Source: an uncultured Acidobacteriia bacterium
GTDB taxonomy: Bacteria > Acidobacteriota > Terriglobia > Bryobacterales > Bryobacteraceae
Assembly (NCBI GenBank): GCA_903892565.1
Contig: CAITIX010000353.1
Coordinates: 19,245-83,244 of the forward strand
Length of the DNA: 64,000 nucleotides
Direction: 5' to 3'
The first letter of the stretch is position 1. Each line of letters opens with the position of its first letter. The notes under the pieces were generated by a model. That model was not told the origin of the DNA, did no database searches, and saw only the letters and a list, made by a program, of their open reading frames with translations. A program made the position numbers and the translations under genes. This document shows, piece after piece, positions 747-51,993 of this stretch.

Positions 747-1445
747 ATGGCCACCGCAACCTATCTCACAAAAGCCACGCTGGATTTTCTGAAACAGCTG
801 AAAACCCACAACGATCGCGATTGGTTCCTGGCCAACAAAGATCGTTACGAAAAGCACGTGCGCGATCCTTTTTTGCTGCTGATTGCCGATCTTGCGCCCG
901 CCTTCGAGAAGGCCAAGCTTCCGTATATCGCCGATCCACGCCCGAACGGCGGTTCGATGATGCGCATCTACCGTGACATCCGTTTCGCGAAAGACAAGAG
1001 CCCTTACAAGACCGCGATTGCCGCTCATTTCGCGCACCAAGAAGGCAAGGACAACGCGGCGCCGGGATTCTATCTCCACATTCAGCCTGGCCAATCGATG
1101 ATCGGCGGCGGAGTGTGGCGGCCGGAGCCGAAGGCGCTCAAAAAGATTCGGGACGCGATTGCTGCCGATCCCAAAGCCTGGCACAAAGCGACCAGCCCGC
1201 TGCGCGCAGGCGCTCACAAAATGGGCTCGGCCTGTGGACTCATCGGTGAGTCGCTCACGCGGCCTCCCGCGGGATTTCCGGCGGATCTTCCCTCGATCGA
1301 AGACATCAAGCGGAAGGATTTCGCCATCAGCTCTCCGCTCTCTGATGCCGAAGTCACAAGCCCCGGCTTCAACAAATTGGTCTTGGAGCGATTCCGCGCC
1401 AGCGCCCCGTTCCTGGAGTTTTTGGCGAAAGCGGTCGGGCTCTAG
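747..1445 (+). CDS. DUF2461 (TIGR02453) family protein
   Basis: ORF 714..1445. LDFLKQLKTHNDRDWF, YRDIRFAKDKSPYK and GFYLHIQPG..GGGVW follow the DUF2461 pattern. ATG 747 is preferred over GTG 714. Confidence 0.7.
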   Translation: MATATYLTKATLDFLKQLKTHNDRDWFLANKDRYEKHVRDPFLLLIADLAPAFEKAKLPYIADPRPNGGSMMRIYRDIRFAKDKSPYKTAIAAHFAHQEGKDNAAPGFYLHIQPGQSMIGGGVWRPEPKALKKIRDAIAADPKAWHKATSPLRAGAHKMGSACGLIGESLTRPPAGFPADLPSIEDIKRKDFAISSPLSDAEVTSPGFNKLVLERFRASAPFLEFLAKAVGL

Positions 1446-1690
1446 GGCAGCCCGCATGTCCACTGTGGCATGAAGTCGGCGGGAATATCCGCAAATTTTC
1501 GTGCTTCTAGCAATGCTGACGCCTGCGCATCCTCAAGATTCATGCAGGTGCCGATCCAACGGATGCGGTCGTCTCGCTTGTCCCTCACACGGAATTCAAA
1601 CACGGGCGCGCAACGTTTGGGGAGCTTGCGCACGTCAAGCCGCAGATCTCCGTAATCGGCGAAATAGAACTCGGCGGTATCCGGCGGCAT
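1442..1690 (-). CDS. hypothetical small protein (82 aa)
   Basis: This is the only sizeable ORF in this gap. It has an ATG start and a 4-nt convergent overlap with the DUF2461 stop. No recognisable family, so it may be spurious. Confidence 0.35.
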   Translation of the reverse strand: MPPDTAEFYFADYGDLRLDVRKLPKRCAPVFEFRVRDKRDDRIRWIGTCMNLEDAQASALLEARKFADIPADFMPQWTCGLP

Positions 1691-1766
1691 TTTTCGTTAG
1701 CCTAGCACCCCAGTAGGATGCCATGGAACATCGCGCGGAGCTTGTCGCAACGAAATCGTTGGTATC

Positions 1767-1884
1767 TCCCCTCCTTCACAGTCGGGGTTCGGTGCCGATT
1801 CTGCGAAAAGGCCGGTTTGATCATCGTATTCAGCACCGAACCGCGACCGTAAGGGAGCGGACAAGATCATTGCGTTTGCTTTGC
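1767..1884. repeat. copy A of a conserved long-hairpin element; partner copy at 51260..51367 in inverted orientation
   Basis: A 29-nt block TCCCCTCCTTCACAGTCGGGGTTCGGTGC is identical to the reverse complement of 51339..51367. A 56-nt 3' block (TTCAGCACCGAACCGCGACCGTAAGGGAGCGG...GTTTGCTTTGC) matches its partner at 49/56. The two arms pair as a stem of about 18 bp around a non-conserved centre. Confidence 0.85.
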
Positions 1885-1984
1885 AATCGACGATGAGTGG
1901 TCTAGAATCCCCTACAGGCGTTAGCATGAAAGTATGGGATCTCACCTCTCCATGCCCGGCCCCGAGCGCCGCCGGCGTCTGCAT

Positions 1985-3880
1985 ATGGTTTCCCAACAGC
2001 AGCTCAAAGAATTGCGCCCTGCGATCGACTCGGCACTTTCCGCTTCGGCCGAGGCACTCACCGCACTGCAGCATCGCGATGGCTACTGGTGCGCGGAGTT
2101 GCTCGCCGATAGCACCCTCGAATCGGATTACGTACTGCTGCAGCTGTGGCTGCATCCCCCTGTTGACGGAGTCTGGGCGCCTCCTTCGCAGAAGCGCGTC
2201 GAAAAGGCCTGCAAATCTATACTCGATCGGCAACTCGCCGATGGTGGCTGGAATATTTATCCACAAGGTCCTTCCGAGATCAACGCGACCGTGCGCGCCT
2301 ACACGGCGTTAAAGCTAGGAGGACATTCCACCACGGCGCCGTACATGCTCAAGGCGCTGGAACGAACTCTCGCGCTCGGTGGCCTGCAAGCGTGCAATAG
2401 CTACACGAAGATCAACTTCAGCCTGTTTGATCTATTCCCGAAGAAGTACGCGCCGAGCGTACCACCGGAAATCGTAATGCTTCCCGCGGACGTCCTCTAC
2501 GAGATGTCTTCCTGGTCGCGCGCCATCGTGGTGCCATTGTCGATCGTGCAGGCGATCGGCTTGCCGCGCTCGGCGCCCGAAGGCTTCAACGTCGATGAGC
2601 TCTACAAGCCCAACGTGAAGCTGAAGCTGCCATCGCGTGGACGGCTCGGAGTCTTGTTTTCTCATCTGGACAAAGCGCTGAAGCTGTGGGAGCGCAAGGG
2701 ATTCAAGAACGTCCGCATGGCCGCCCTGCGCGAGGCCGAGCACTGGATGCTGGATCGCACGCGTTATGCCGATGGCCTGGGCGCGATTTATCCCTCGATG
2801 ATGTACCTCATCATGGCGCTCGATTCGCTCAACTACGCCGAGGATCATCCGGACCGCATCGCGGCGATCAAAGTATTCGAAGATCTCATCATCGAGACCG
2901 AAGATCGTTTCCAGTTTCAGCCCTGCTACTCGCCCATCTGGGATACGTCGTACGCTGCGTTCGCACTGGGGGAAATCGGCAATGCGGATCAAGCCGCCAT
3001 GCGGAAATCCGCCGACTGGATGCTGGATCGCGAATGCCGCCGCAAAGGCGATTGGTCCGTGAAGCGCCCTGGACTCGAACCCAGCGGCTGGGCCTTTGAA
3101 TTCGCCAACGAGCATTATCCCGACATCGACGACACAGCTCAGGTGCTGTTGGCGCTCATGCACGCAAAAGCCTCCGACCCCGCGCGTCAAGAGCGTGTAG
3201 AACGCCGCGCCGTCAACTGGCTGCTCGGCATGCAATCGCGCGATGGTGGTTGGGCGGCGTTCGACGTGGATTGCGATTGGAAGCTGCTCGATAAAGTTCC
3301 GTTCGCCGACCACAACGCCATGCTCGATCCGTCGTGCCCCGATATCACGGGCCGTGTTCTCGAAGCACTCACCCGCCGTGGGCTCACGATGGAACATCCC
3401 GCCATTCAGCGTGGCGTTCAATTCTTACTGGAGCACCAGGAAGACAACGGCAGTTGGTACGGACGCTGGGGCGTGAACTACGTCTACGGAACGTTCCTCG
3501 CCGTGCGCGGGCTGGAATCATCACACGCACCGGCGGCTCGCCCAGCGATGGCCAGAGCTGTGGAATGGGTGAAGTCCGTGCAGAACGCCGATGGCGGATG
3601 GGGCGAATCCTGCGCCAGCTATCCCAAGGGCCGTTTCATCTCGGCCGAGAGCACCGCATCGCAGACTGCCTGGGGATTGCTAACGCTCGCGGCTTGTGGC
3701 GATAAGTCCTCGGACTCTGTCGCCAGGGGCGTCCGCTACCTGCTCGACACGCAGAAGCCCAGCGGCGATTGGGACGAGAACCTCGCCACGGGCACTGGCT
3801 TCCCAGGCGTGTTCTATTTGACGTACAAGATGTATCGTCACTATTTCCCGATTCTCGCACTGACGACGATGCGGACTTAG
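1985..3880 (+). CDS. shc: squalene-hopene cyclase
   Basis: ORF 1934..3880. Catalytic DxDD motif (YPDIDDTAQV), repeated QW-like motifs (DGGW/DGSW) and N-terminal QHRDGYW. ATG 1985 was chosen by comparing N-terminal length with known SHCs. Confidence 0.92.
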   Translation: MVSQQQLKELRPAIDSALSASAEALTALQHRDGYWCAELLADSTLESDYVLLQLWLHPPVDGVWAPPSQKRVEKACKSILDRQLADGGWNIYPQGPSEINATVRAYTALKLGGHSTTAPYMLKALERTLALGGLQACNSYTKINFSLFDLFPKKYAPSVPPEIVMLPADVLYEMSSWSRAIVVPLSIVQAIGLPRSAPEGFNVDELYKPNVKLKLPSRGRLGVLFSHLDKALKLWERKGFKNVRMAALREAEHWMLDRTRYADGLGAIYPSMMYLIMALDSLNYAEDHPDRIAAIKVFEDLIIETEDRFQFQPCYSPIWDTSYAAFALGEIGNADQAAMRKSADWMLDRECRRKGDWSVKRPGLEPSGWAFEFANEHYPDIDDTAQVLLALMHAKASDPARQERVERRAVNWLLGMQSRDGGWAAFDVDCDWKLLDKVPFADHNAMLDPSCPDITGRVLEALTRRGLTMEHPAIQRGVQFLLEHQEDNGSWYGRWGVNYVYGTFLAVRGLESSHAPAARPAMARAVEWVKSVQNADGGWGESCASYPKGRFISAESTASQTAWGLLTLAACGDKSSDSVARGVRYLLDTQKPSGDWDENLATGTGFPGVFYLTYKMYRHYFPILALTTMRT

Positions 3881-13875: not shown

Positions 13876-13965
13876 TGGCGGAGAGGGTGGGATTCGAACC
13901 CACGTTAGAGTTTCCCCTAAACACGCTTTCCAAGCGTGCGCCTTCAACCACTCGGCCACCTCTCC
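13876..13965 (-). tRNA. tRNA-Ser (anticodon GGA)
   Basis: 90-nt cloverleaf on the minus strand. The GGAGAGG acceptor 5' arm pairs with CCTCTCC, followed by G and an encoded CCA. It has a GGTTCGAATCC T-arm and a long variable arm. The anticodon loop TTGGAAA gives GGA. Confidence 0.95.
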
Positions 13966-20529: not shown

Positions 20530-20573
20530 GTGGGGCGGAGCTTCGGCTCCGCGGGTCGGAAGACCCGCCCCAC
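20530..20573. repeat. 44-nt REP-like structured element (two tetraloop hairpins closed by an outer stem)
   Basis: GTGGGG-CGGAGC(TTCG)GCTCCG-CGGGTC(GGAA)GACCCG-CCCCAC. It shares the GTGGGGCGG / GAGCTTCNGCTC / CCGCCCCAC modules with the hairpin array at 34439..34604. It lies between the convergent hemY and rlmD stops. Confidence 0.85.
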
Positions 20574-20581
20574 ATCGGAAC

Positions 20582-34438: not shown

Positions 34439-34604
34439 GTGGGGCGGCGTGGTGGGGCGGGGCTTCGTCCCCGCAGGCCGAGCTTCTGCTCGGCCCAGTT
34501 AAACAAAGTAGAGCTTCTGCTCGGCCTAATCAAAGCGACGTCCAGCTGCCCTAAGAACAGAGCCGGGCGGAAGCCCGGCTCGCGGAGCAGAAGCTCCGCC
34601 CCAC
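34439..34604. repeat. array of GC-rich tetraloop hairpins (REP-like cluster) immediately upstream of the RAYT gene
   Basis: GTGGGGCGG occurs at 34439 and 34452, and its complement CCGCCCCAC at 34596. Perfect hairpins: GCGGGG/CCCCGC (34457-74), GGCCGAGC-TTCT-GCTCGGCC (34476-95), AGCCGGGC-GGAA-GCCCGGCT (34561-80) and GCGGAGC-AGAA-GCTCCGC (34582-99). There is also a half copy at 34511-26. Confidence 0.85.
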
Positions 34605-34710
34605 AAAACCAGCTTTGCCACAAACCGCCCCGCTGCGAAATAGTTCTGCCATCCATGGAAAGCCAGCGAAAACTCTGAGAGTTTTTGCAGCCTCCGAGCA
34701 CTTGCTCATC

Positions 34711-35286
34711 GTGACGCACTATGTTCGCCGCCTCCCGCACTTGGATGTCCCAGGGCGACCCCTGTTTGTCACGTTCCGTTTATACGGCAGCCTTCCAAAG
34801 AATCGAGCATTCCCCAAAGAACATCTGACATCGGGCCGCGCGTTTGCCGCGATGGATCAGTTGTTAGATTATGCACGAACCGGACCTCTCTATCTCCGCC
34901 AGCCTGAAATTGCGAGGCTTGTCTGCGAAGCCATCGAGACTGGTCAAGATCGATTTCAGCGCTACGCACTGCACGCCTACGTCGTCATGCCAAATCATGT
35001 CCACATGCTGGTGACATCAGAGACGCGTTCGGTGGACTGGTTAAGATCCTTGAAAGGATTCACCGGCAAGCAAGCGACGAAACTCCTTTCCCTCACCGAG
35101 CCCTTCTGGCAAGATGAAAGCTACGACCGCAGCGTGCGCAGCCGCGATGAATTTCAGAAAATCTTGGGTTACATCGAAGAGAACCCGGTGCGAGCAGGTC
35201 TGGGGAGTCGGGCGGCAGACTTTCCGTGGTCCAGTACAGCGCGCATGCCCCGAGAATCTATCTTGGAAACGCCTGCCCGTGCGTAG
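34711..35286 (+). CDS. IS200-like HUH/Y1 transposase family protein, REP-associated tyrosine transposase (RAYT)-like
   Basis: HUH motif VMPNHVHML and catalytic Tyr region FWQDESYDRSV. C-terminal YIEENPVRAGL...DFPWSS, as in RayT/YafM-like proteins. There is no in-frame ATG, so GTG 34711 is proposed. The track ORF starts at TTG 34615, inside the hairpin array. Confidence 0.75.
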   Translation: MTHYVRRLPHLDVPGRPLFVTFRLYGSLPKNRAFPKEHLTSGRAFAAMDQLLDYARTGPLYLRQPEIARLVCEAIETGQDRFQRYALHAYVVMPNHVHMLVTSETRSVDWLRSLKGFTGKQATKLLSLTEPFWQDESYDRSVRSRDEFQKILGYIEENPVRAGLGSRAADFPWSSTARMPRESILETPARA

Positions 35287-35508
35287 ATCAAAATCACAAA
35301 TCGATCCCAAATTCGCGATTCCCGTTTCCTGGCGTTCTAAGGCCCCTAGGAGCGATTTTCGCGATTCTCCGCACCCTACCCCTTAACCACCCCTCGTCGA
35401 TGGCCTCGAATTTGGCGAAAATTTGGTGAAGCGCGTTGCTTCCGTTAGGCTTGCGGACCAGAGCAAGTCACGTTTTGGCAAAGCGCAGTTTTTGGCGCGA
35501 AGCTCGCG

Positions 35509-51154: not shown

Positions 51155-51259
51155 GGGGAATCCTTCTGTCTCCATTGTAGCTGCTGGGAGAGCGGCTCTA
51201 GCCTTTTAGATGCAGCGGGCGTGTTCGTTGTAGCGGAAAAATGTACCTAGCGGCCTGTC

Positions 51260-51367
51260 GCAAAGCAAACGTTATCATCCGGTCCGCTCCCTGACGGTCG
51301 CGGTTCCGTGCTGAACACTGGCACCCCTCACAAAACTAGCACCGAACCCCGACTGTGAAGGAGGGGA
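51260..51367. repeat. copy B of the conserved long-hairpin element (partner of 1767..1884)
   Basis: The reverse complement reads TCCCCTCCTTCACAGTCGGGGTTCGGTGC-(23 nt)-TTCAGCACGGAACCGCGACCGTCAGGGAGCGG...GTTTGCTTTGC. It lies in the dedA-nadA intergenic region, in sense orientation relative to nadA. Confidence 0.85.
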
Positions 51368-51396
51368 CATAGTAACGGACTCAGCGCGACGGTCTA

Positions 51397-51993
51397 CTAG
51401 CCCTCAGAAACGACCGCGGGCCGCCGAGCATCCACCCAGCGCACCAACCCATAGAGAGCCAGTCCGATGGCCGCGGCGAGCGCAAGCAAATGCCACACGT
51501 GGCCCTTTAACCACGCCGAGGAATTCTCCCCGAGCTGTTGTCCAAGATAGGCGAGCGCCAGGTAGCGAGGGAAACGGGCAGCGGCCAATACCAGGAAGAA
51601 ACGATAGCGCGGCACGCACATGACACCGGCGCAGGCCGCGAAGACCTTGAACGGCATGATCGGAATCGGGAGCAAAGCGGGGATGAAGACAGTGATGAGG
51701 CCGTAGCGGCCAAACCACTCGCGGAACCGTTGCCCGCTGCTGCCCGTGGTGTACTTGGCCAGAAACTTTTCGCCGCCCTTGCGCGTAATCTCGTAGAAAA
51801 TCGCGCTACCGATGAGCGATCCAATGGCTGCGAGTAAAGCGCACAGCATCGCATCCTGCGGACGGGCGATCGCCAGAAGCAGAAGGAGCGCGTCGGTGCC
51901 ACCGGGATTCGGAATGCCCGCCGATTCCACTGCGGCAAGGAGCAGAATCCCCAGAGGGCCCCAAGATACGAGAACATCGCGAAGATGACGCAT
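51397..51993 (-). CDS. DedA/YqaA (VTT-domain) family membrane protein
   Basis: 198 aa with 4-5 TM helices. The AVESAGIPNPGGTDALLL and F..R.FPR patterns are typical of the family. Confidence 0.7.
   Translation of the reverse strand: MRHLRDVLVSWGPLGILLLAAVESAGIPNPGGTDALLLLLAIARPQDAMLCALLAAIGSLIGSAIFYEITRKGGEKFLAKYTTGSSGQRFREWFGRYGLITVFIPALLPIPIMPFKVFAACAGVMCVPRYRFFLVLAAARFPRYLALAYLGQQLGENSSAWLKGHVWHLLALAAAIGLALYGLVRWVDARRPAVVSEG

Follow-up and report, generated by a model that had tools for sequence, protein, structure and literature searches.

Gene Context of the Two Copies

The window, as the whole 64-kb stretch of DNA analyzed here is called, comes from an organism of a lake-water metagenome, and the closest named relatives of its proteins are Bryobacteraceae. 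It includes shc (confirmed with TIGR01507, 639 bits) and nadA with a DedA/VTT-type gene upstream, both of which were also confirmed. Each of shc and nadA is preceded by a copy of the same sequence, here called copy A and copy B, respectively. The 29-mer TCCCCTCCTTCACAGTCGGGGTTCGGTGC is found exact at 1767–1795 (+) and 51339–51367 (−), and nowhere else in the 64-kb window with up to three mismatches allowed (0 of 100 shuffles). The 3′ blocks, at 1829–1884 and 51315–51260, are identical at 49 of 56 positions (87.5%), the core GAACCGCGACCGTNAGGGAGCGGAC is exact in both copies, and the central parts measure 33 nt in copy A and 23 nt in copy B. Sequence comparison thus bears out these features, which had been described in an earlier note made from the letters of the window. 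The centre, called non-conserved there, is partly conserved in the wider family (TAGTTTTGCGAAAA...). No third copy of the element was found in the 64-kb window.

Both copies fold into an imperfect hairpin of about 25–26 bp with four 1 × 1 mismatches, with folding energies of −52.3 kcal/mol (z −3.55) for copy A and −44.7 kcal/mol (z −1.57) for copy B. The complementary strands of both copies fold about equally well or better. The similarity between the copies reaches past the flagged span, by about 25 nt on the 5′ side (GTCGC..CGTTnnTAT) and up to a CTAG on the 3′ side.

Copy B lies 105 nt from nadA in its 309-aa form, for which the distance given earlier is right. In the case of shc, a start at 1934 or 1952 is more likely than one at 1985, and the choice among the three remains unsettled. 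Gene calls in homologues point to the ATG at window position 1952 (P0001, 642 aa), and in two relatives (L126 and L127) the stretch leading from 1921 up to the ATG at 1934 is conserved. Copy A therefore ends 49–67 nt before shc, and not 100 nt before it as first stated. The segment 1921–1954 (TTAGCATGAAAGTATGGGATC...) precedes shc and is kept in relatives; within it a TAGCAT hexamer stands 6 nt ahead of the ATG at 1934, a placement that could give a leaderless or very-short-leader shc mRNA. Elsewhere in the window, a tRNA-Ser (GGA) at 13876–13965 (−) is the only Rfam/ARAGORN match.

Structure of the Element

Each arm of the two hairpins holds a unit of about 28 nt with the layout C-n-G-A-A / CCGC / GA / CC / GTNA / GG / GA / GCGG / AC, in which stems of 4 bp and 2 bp are separated by a tandem G.A pair and the hairpin is capped by a GTNA loop. 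The predicted fold of the window units is identical to ((((..((....))..)))). The 5′ foot is CnGA, being CCGA in copy A and CGGA in copy B. The tandem G.A and the loop closed by G..A are present on the unit strand only, and this fits, if weakly, the strand-specific recognition known for the HuH-Y1 superfamily.

The whole segment of copy A spans 1720–1905 (+) and contains the flagged 1767–1884; its boundaries are approximate, to about ±10 nt, and its left end is degenerate. The left arm (1766–1795, −) is the REP-like unit GAACCCCGACTGTGAAGGAGGGGAG with the foot CACC ahead, a CCCC/GGGG, CT/AG variant that departs from the core by compensatory changes and has the fold ((((..((....))..)))). A spacer or loop (1796–1835, +) separates the two facing 5′ feet. 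The right arm (1836–1862, +) is a canonical unit, with the foot CCGA followed by A-CCGC-GA-CC-GTAA-GG-GA-GCGG-AC. The tail (1863–1905, +), AAGATCATTGCGTTTGCTTTGCAATCGAC...GGTCTAG, is part of the outer inverted repeat of the composite.

Copy B (51247–51396, −) is a complete insertion of 150 nt, TAGACCGTCGC...GGCCGCTAG, placed between the stop codon of the dedA-like gene (the TAG of the CTAG at 51397–51400) and the nadA promoter region. Its left arm (51339–51368, +) is the unit GAACCCCGACTGTGAAGGAGGGGAC, and its right arm (51282–51308, −) the canonical unit GAACCGCGACCGTCAGGGAGCGGAC with the foot CGGA. The 150 nt form a palindrome, laid out as CTAG-N6-GTCGC, CGTTA, a unit on the minus strand, the spacer, a second unit, TAACG and GCGAC-N6-CTAG, so that an outer inverted repeat of about 35 nt flanks the paired units on each side. 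Related composites are present at two further loci (L002 and L083). The element is larger than the span first flagged, copy B occupying 51247–51396 in full when compared with an empty site.

The fold of the unit can be followed in its variants. Variants found by similarity alone retain pairing through compensatory changes, for example CCGC/GCGG to CCCC/GGGG, the inner C-G pair to T-A or A-T, and the next inner C-G to G-C or A-T. Among 76 distinct variants 93.6% of the cells are paired, and double-sided changes occupy 36 cells, against 8.4 in shuffles, none of 500 of which reached the observed value; three of the six pairs have G-C/C-G or C-G/A-U swaps. Pairing falls to 34–45% when the register is slid. 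Covariation, which had been listed as a check, therefore supports the pairs. The edges of the unit are sharp at both ends. In 129 listed metagenome copies position −2 is C in 86%, followed by G and A, and the information content drops to zero directly 3′ of ..GCGGAC, while the 5′ side keeps only A-C-C.

Empty Sites in Close Relatives

Close relatives lack the element at both genes. The nearest one at nadA (L131) has a 99%-identical NadA, the same dedA-nadA order and flanking DNA of 91.5–94% identity, and its dedA-nadA spacer measures 94 nt, compared with 242 nt in the window. The alignment has a single clean gap that corresponds to window positions 51396–51247 (150 nt): the empty site reads GGGCTAG, then AGCCGTTTT, and the filled site of the window reads GGGCTAG, then the 150 nt ending in GCTAG, then GTACATTTT. 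CTAG is present at both junctions of copy B, and the left one includes the dedA stop codon. Two more distant relatives (L132 and L134, NadA 83–84% identical) also have an empty nadA site, with a spacer of 18 nt. At shc, synteny is kept in L126 (Shc 92%) and L127 (89%), where a DUF2461 gene is followed by shc, and both are without about 186 nt that correspond roughly to window positions 1720–1905. The sequence TTAGCATnAAAnTATGGGATC just ahead of the shc start is common to the window and to these two relatives. No unit was found in about 150 kb of DNA from the relatives with empty sites. The element thus varies in presence from one close lineage to the next, and both genes can do without it; its absence from close relatives at both sites marks it as a genomic parasite or passenger and not as a dedicated control element.

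The most probable reading, given a probability of about 0.8, is that both copies are insertions of a non-autonomous mobile element of about 150 nt, composed of two inverted REP-like units and outer repeats. The MITE-like mobile inverted repeat offered earlier as one of the explanations was in this respect essentially correct, as the element is high in copy number, occurs in every gene context and has clean empty sites.

The junctions bear on how such an element would move. A 4-bp target-site duplication, as made by a DDE-type transposase, would account equally well for the CTAG at both ends of copy B. A conventional MITE moved by such an enzyme (e.g., IS5-like) and duplicating CTAG/YTAR, with the REP-like units as cargo or ancestry, would explain the discrete nature of the 150-nt insertion at copy B and its terminal inverted repeats (CTAG-N6-GTCGC ... 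GCGAC-N6-CTAG), the single CTAG at the empty nadA site against two at the filled site in the one clean filled/empty pair, and the CTAG-N6-GTCGC also present at the left end of the L002 composite. This origin is nevertheless considered unlikely. Most family members consist of no more than a single unit or a short doublet, with sharp edges at the unit and without outer repeats, the left junction of copy A has no CTAG, and no DDE transposase with matching ends was seen. In addition, the ends of IS200/IS605 elements give a left target and a related right-end tetranucleotide in the same way, and this without duplication.

Copy Number, Dispersal and Arrangement

Comparison of Logan contigs over window positions 1300–2400 shows that the unit is highly repeated. 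From flank to unit, word depth rises from 5 to 456 in X1, from 6.8 to 623 in X2 and from 8.3 to 519 in X6, or about 60–90 times the flanks in these three lake/freshwater metagenomes, depths to which copies in other co-occurring genomes contribute. Depth over the 5′ block is about 9–19 times that of the flanks, and over the tail 22–36 times, with about 9–13 and 30–36 times, respectively, in X1 and X2. The contigs end at internal block boundaries of the element, and many different continuations follow from there. In X6, which is from another freshwater study and contains a relative of about 92% identity, the element is present at the shc site. The density in the window is two doublets per 64 kb, from which a count per genome is only an estimate.

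The 24 specified core bases are found exact in at least 120 stretches of JGI metagenomes from peat, soil, sediment and other sources, with unrelated flanks around the listed copies and a G+C content of the host contigs of 48–70%. The census of copies and contexts thus gave the scatter over unrelated surroundings that the earlier note had named as the outcome speaking against regulation. Exact core bases are also present in 74 IMG/VR viral contigs. The 5′ block is less widespread, as a scan of genome contigs with a 19-mer from it gave three loci, one of which is a chance match in a coding region; this variant of the block is therefore lineage-restricted. CnGA units cluster on phage-looking IMG/VR contigs (L176 3804–4202; also L198 and L201). 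On the first of these, translations of ORFs of 302, 471 and 398 aa read like a major capsid protein, a portal protein and a large terminase, respectively, and the units occupy the space between the last two of these ORFs.

In 842 kb of loci there are 235 units, 96 of them single. Paired units comprise 51 dimers with feet inward, the type seen in the window, 14 with feet outward and 10 tandem pairs. Gaps within feet-in dimers are 4–47 nt, apart from two outliers of 93 and 97 nt; they measure 47 nt in copy A and 37 nt in copy B. An operator with half-sites 10 bp apart was discarded on the range of 4–47 nt.

Tandem arrays are found at three loci (L042 2317–2700, L142 1326–1676, and L184 13140–13490), with repeats of 124 nt or of 67/136 nt, each composed of a CnGA unit and partial feet (TTCCGAGCCGCGCCTG), and they resemble BIME-like clusters. 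The unit of about 28 nt is partly palindromic and its spacing in the arrays is regular (124 nt in L042, 67/69 nt in L142/L184), as would be expected of degenerate CRISPR repeats or of another array-derived repeat. The probability of such an origin is negligible, since the “spacers” are themselves repeated in all three arrays, the tandem 67/136-nt units being 89–96% identical, and most copies of the family are single or in inverted pairs.

Among 131 exact copies, from the listed loci and the window, 107 are intergenic or overlap a gene partially, by heuristic gene calls. Two units (L018 5452–5476 and 5983–6007) are within one ORF of 1085 aa, taken from part of its sequence to be restriction-modification/methyltransferase-like, and would be intragenic insertions that leave the frame open. 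At another locus (L048 10160–10400) a feet-out doublet is flanked by a second copy of the terminal ~35 nt of the gene before it (..ACCGAGATTGAGCAGATGTTCCGAAG..), which suggests a duplication or repair scar at insertion.

For 83 copies genes were called on both sides, and the four flanking arrangements number 31, 24, 17 and 11. Unit and downstream gene share a strand in 42 cases and differ in 41; for the upstream gene the figures are 55 and 28, respectively. Convergent gene pairs make up 29% of the contexts, which is an enrichment, and divergent pairs 13%, which is a depletion. The 55:28 bias is compatible, though weakly, with the replication-strand bias of single-strand Y1 transposition.

These contexts bear on a role in gene control common to shc and nadA, as a cis-regulatory leader RNA or a protein-binding operator, including an anti-Shine-Dalgarno hairpin. 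Such a role was suggested by the position of both copies 5′ of a gene in the same orientation, by the stable hairpin and by the CCUCC/GGGAG pairing. It is very improbable, because relatives with 99% or 84% identical NadA and 92% or 89% identical Shc have no element, the unit occurs in well over 100 unrelated contexts with no strand preference toward the downstream gene, and the opposite strand gives a fold of about equal or greater stability. The common orientation to the downstream gene, two of two copies, is at chance level, and the CCUCC run is the complement of GGAGG in the 3′ half of the left-arm REP unit. There is no Rfam match either: a scan of the window with Rfam 15, in which only the tRNA-Ser reached threshold, gave nothing relevant to the element at the gathering cut-offs or at E ≤ 10, and near copy A only chance-level values (E 0.7–3.3). 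A small RNA, also proposed in the earlier note, found no support. A leader peptide after the SD-like AGGGAG was rejected, because copy A lacks a start codon at this point and the reading frame shows no conservation.

Relation to Known Repeat Families

Class 3 HuH-Y1 proteins were defined in Planctomycetes, Acidobacteria and Proteobacteria (Quentin et al., 2018, BMC Genomics 19:475, PMC6006769). REP-like hairpins flank their genes in Solibacter usitatus, Legionella pneumophila and Planctomyces, and about 600 copies of a class 3 REP-like sequence occur in S. usitatus (PMC6006769). The published sequences, which have the structure ((((..((....))..)))), include CCGAGCCGCGACCGTAAGGGAGCGGA of L. pneumophila and CAGAGCCGCGACCGTTAGGGAGCGTCCCG, CGGAGCCGCGACCGTAAGGGAGCGTCCTG and CAGAGCCGCGACCGTCAGGGAGCGATCG of S. 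usitatus, also given as CAGAGCCGCGACCGTTAGGGAGCG.. and CGGAGCCGCGACCGTAAGGGAGCG.., with a CnGA foot, and CACGAGCCGGAAGCGTGAGCGACGGGT of P. limnophilus (Table S1, PMC6006769). The window units at 1838–1862 and 51282–51306 match these published sequences. The right arm of copy A differs from the L. pneumophila form by one base, and variants with G at the mismatched position are also present in the listed loci. Judged by its sequence, the window unit, foot included, is a member of the published class 3 HuH-Y1-associated REP-like family. Class 3 repeats span phyla, and this accounts for the wide G+C range of the metagenome matches.

The likeness to the class 3 repeats extends to a near-identical unit, fold and CnGA foot, high copy number and the same host lineage (Bryobacterales, including Solibacter). 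In contrast to the published repeats, which are single hairpins adjoining genes, the element studied here combines two units with outer inverted repeats into a 150-nt composite that has CTAG junctions, its units are far from any class 3 gene, and there is direct evidence from filled and empty sites. Among plasmids, BLAST with the unit gave only weak matches, the best of which is intergenic DNA of Legionella adelaidensis, with no transposase near that unit. A literature search by sequence led to a collision with a human p16 methylation primer and was dismissed.

Like REPINs, which are mobilized by RAYTs, and the BIMEs of E. coli, the element is a long imperfect hairpin of two inverted units around a spacer of lower conservation; it occurs most often as the doublet, which is apparently what moves, location is mostly extragenic, and singles, dimers and tandem clusters coexist, with variant units as heterodimers. 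Unlike those of REPINs, the window unit has no GTAG/GTGG head; its internal loop is a tandem G.A and its terminal loop GTNA, and the presumed enzyme is of class 3 and not a class 2 RAYT. Its core, conserved across phyla, also sets it apart from classical, species-specific REPs. Of the two marks of a REPIN (Bertels & Rainey), the doublet as the replicating unit is found here, with 51 feet-in dimers and with copy B absent from the empty site as one 150-nt block, and a cognate class 2 RAYT flanked by the same REPs was not seen in the window.

Palindromes derived from IS200/IS605, Correia elements and IS5-type MITEs are likewise short, non-coding, palindromic and discrete, with a specific tetranucleotide at the junction, and they, like the element studied here, may land in promoters or 3′ ends and change expression. 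Correia elements and IS5-type MITEs depend on DDE enzymes and make true target duplications, whereas the internal units of the element match a Y1-associated family. The element is assigned as REPIN/MITE-like, within the published repeat family and in its commonest form, the doublet.

Proposed Mobilization and a Separate REP System

In the reading with most support, an enzyme of HuH-Y1 class 3 acting in trans would recognize the hairpins on single-stranded DNA, as in RAYT/REPIN or IS200/IS605 systems; the whole doublet would be the unit that moves, and CTAG would be its target. The further proposal of an active 150-nt composite, mobilized in one piece to CTAG targets by a class 3 HuH-Y1 enzyme, is a tentative one, with odds somewhat below even. 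No class 3 HuH-Y1 gene (motifs NHVH, W[TA], Y----Q) was found in the window, in ~840 kb of loci with units or in 660 kb of viral loci, so the link to the enzyme comes from the literature. The search combined a motif regex with tblastn, for which the two Y1 queries were E. coli RayT and the RAYT-like protein of the window, neither of them a class 3 protein. The units are also set back by ~35 nt from either end of the 150-nt insertion, a point against the proposal. Two Y1 matches were rejected: one (L048) is spurious and falls within a 330-aa ORF of the other strand whose translation resembles a carbamate kinase, and the other (L018) has a subclass-1.2 signature (Y---Q--HH) and is flanked by other hairpins.

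The only Y1 gene in the window is an ORF at 34615–35286 (+), probably with its real start at a GTG near 34711, that encodes a RAYT-like protein. It scores 72.7 bits with NCBIfam REP_Tyr_transpos (cut-off 80) and 22.9 bits with Pfam Y1_Tnp (cut-off 23), and carries the motifs NHVH, WQ and YIEENP, matching subclass 2.7 (Quentin et al., 2018, PMC6006769). Ahead of the gene, at 34452–34604, stand GTGG-tagged hairpins that resemble the 2.7 REPs of S. usitatus (GTGGGGCAGCCATTCCTGGCTGTC), and these hairpins and the segment 35337–35440 are repeated about 3–5 times in the metagenome. GTGG-tagged REPs of another family flank this gene, while a GT[AG]G head is lacking in the units studied here, and the gene is not their cognate. 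The region 34452–35440 looks like a second, independent REP system, a separate REPtron, and not like the partner of the CnGA units. A further GTGG-type REP, GTGGGGCGGAGCTTCGGCTCCGCGGGTCGGAAGACCCGCCCCAC, is found at 20530–20576 right after a stop codon, with a “double foot” and two inner hairpins.

Possible Effects on Neighboring Genes

Any effects of the insertions on shc and nadA would be a by-product of landing, either through a hairpin in read-through transcripts or through a displaced or donated promoter. Exaptation after insertion, compatible with a mobile origin, could take the form of a transcript-end hairpin that protects or attenuates the upstream mRNA (cf. REP/BIME of E. coli) or of an outward promoter, with TTGCAA/TTGCGA in the tail as a candidate −35 box. 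The units are enriched after gene ends, as is evident from the excess of convergent over divergent contexts and from the upstream gene being on the same strand in 55 of 83 cases, and copy B begins at the stop codon of the dedA-like gene. At copy A, the tail and the adjacent DNA give a sigma-70-like match, TTGCAA-16-TAGAAT (1881–1908), 26 nt before the ATG at 1934. Exaptation is still judged improbable. The hairpin is not followed by a T-run, copy B has no promoter match, a search for RNA runs containing either locus gave none, the relatives do well without the element, and the same bias is expected from selection against insertions in promoters together with replication-strand bias. An outward promoter in the tail was dropped as a general feature, the consensus match being confined to copy A.

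Implications

New details are the 150-nt composite with CTAG at its junctions, the close relatives with empty sites and the occurrence of the unit on phage contigs. The gain is modest: presence/absence evidence at the population level for a poorly studied group of HuH-Y1-associated repeats, in which the doublet form dominates, and the spread of the same core of ~25 nt across very different hosts, even phage contigs. For annotation, these hairpins should be masked as repeats and not described as riboswitches, sRNAs or operators of shc and nadA. If the proposed mobilization holds true, the filled/empty pairs would provide direct evidence, the first of its kind, for the mobility of class 3 “REPtron-like” hairpins, and a near-identical core shared by Acidobacteria, Legionella, planctomycetes and phage contigs would point to an unusually constrained, horizontally spreading pair of enzyme and hairpin. 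Should the link to class 3 be demonstrated, the tandem G.A and GTNA hairpin with its CnGA guide would offer a compact model for single-strand DNA recognition.
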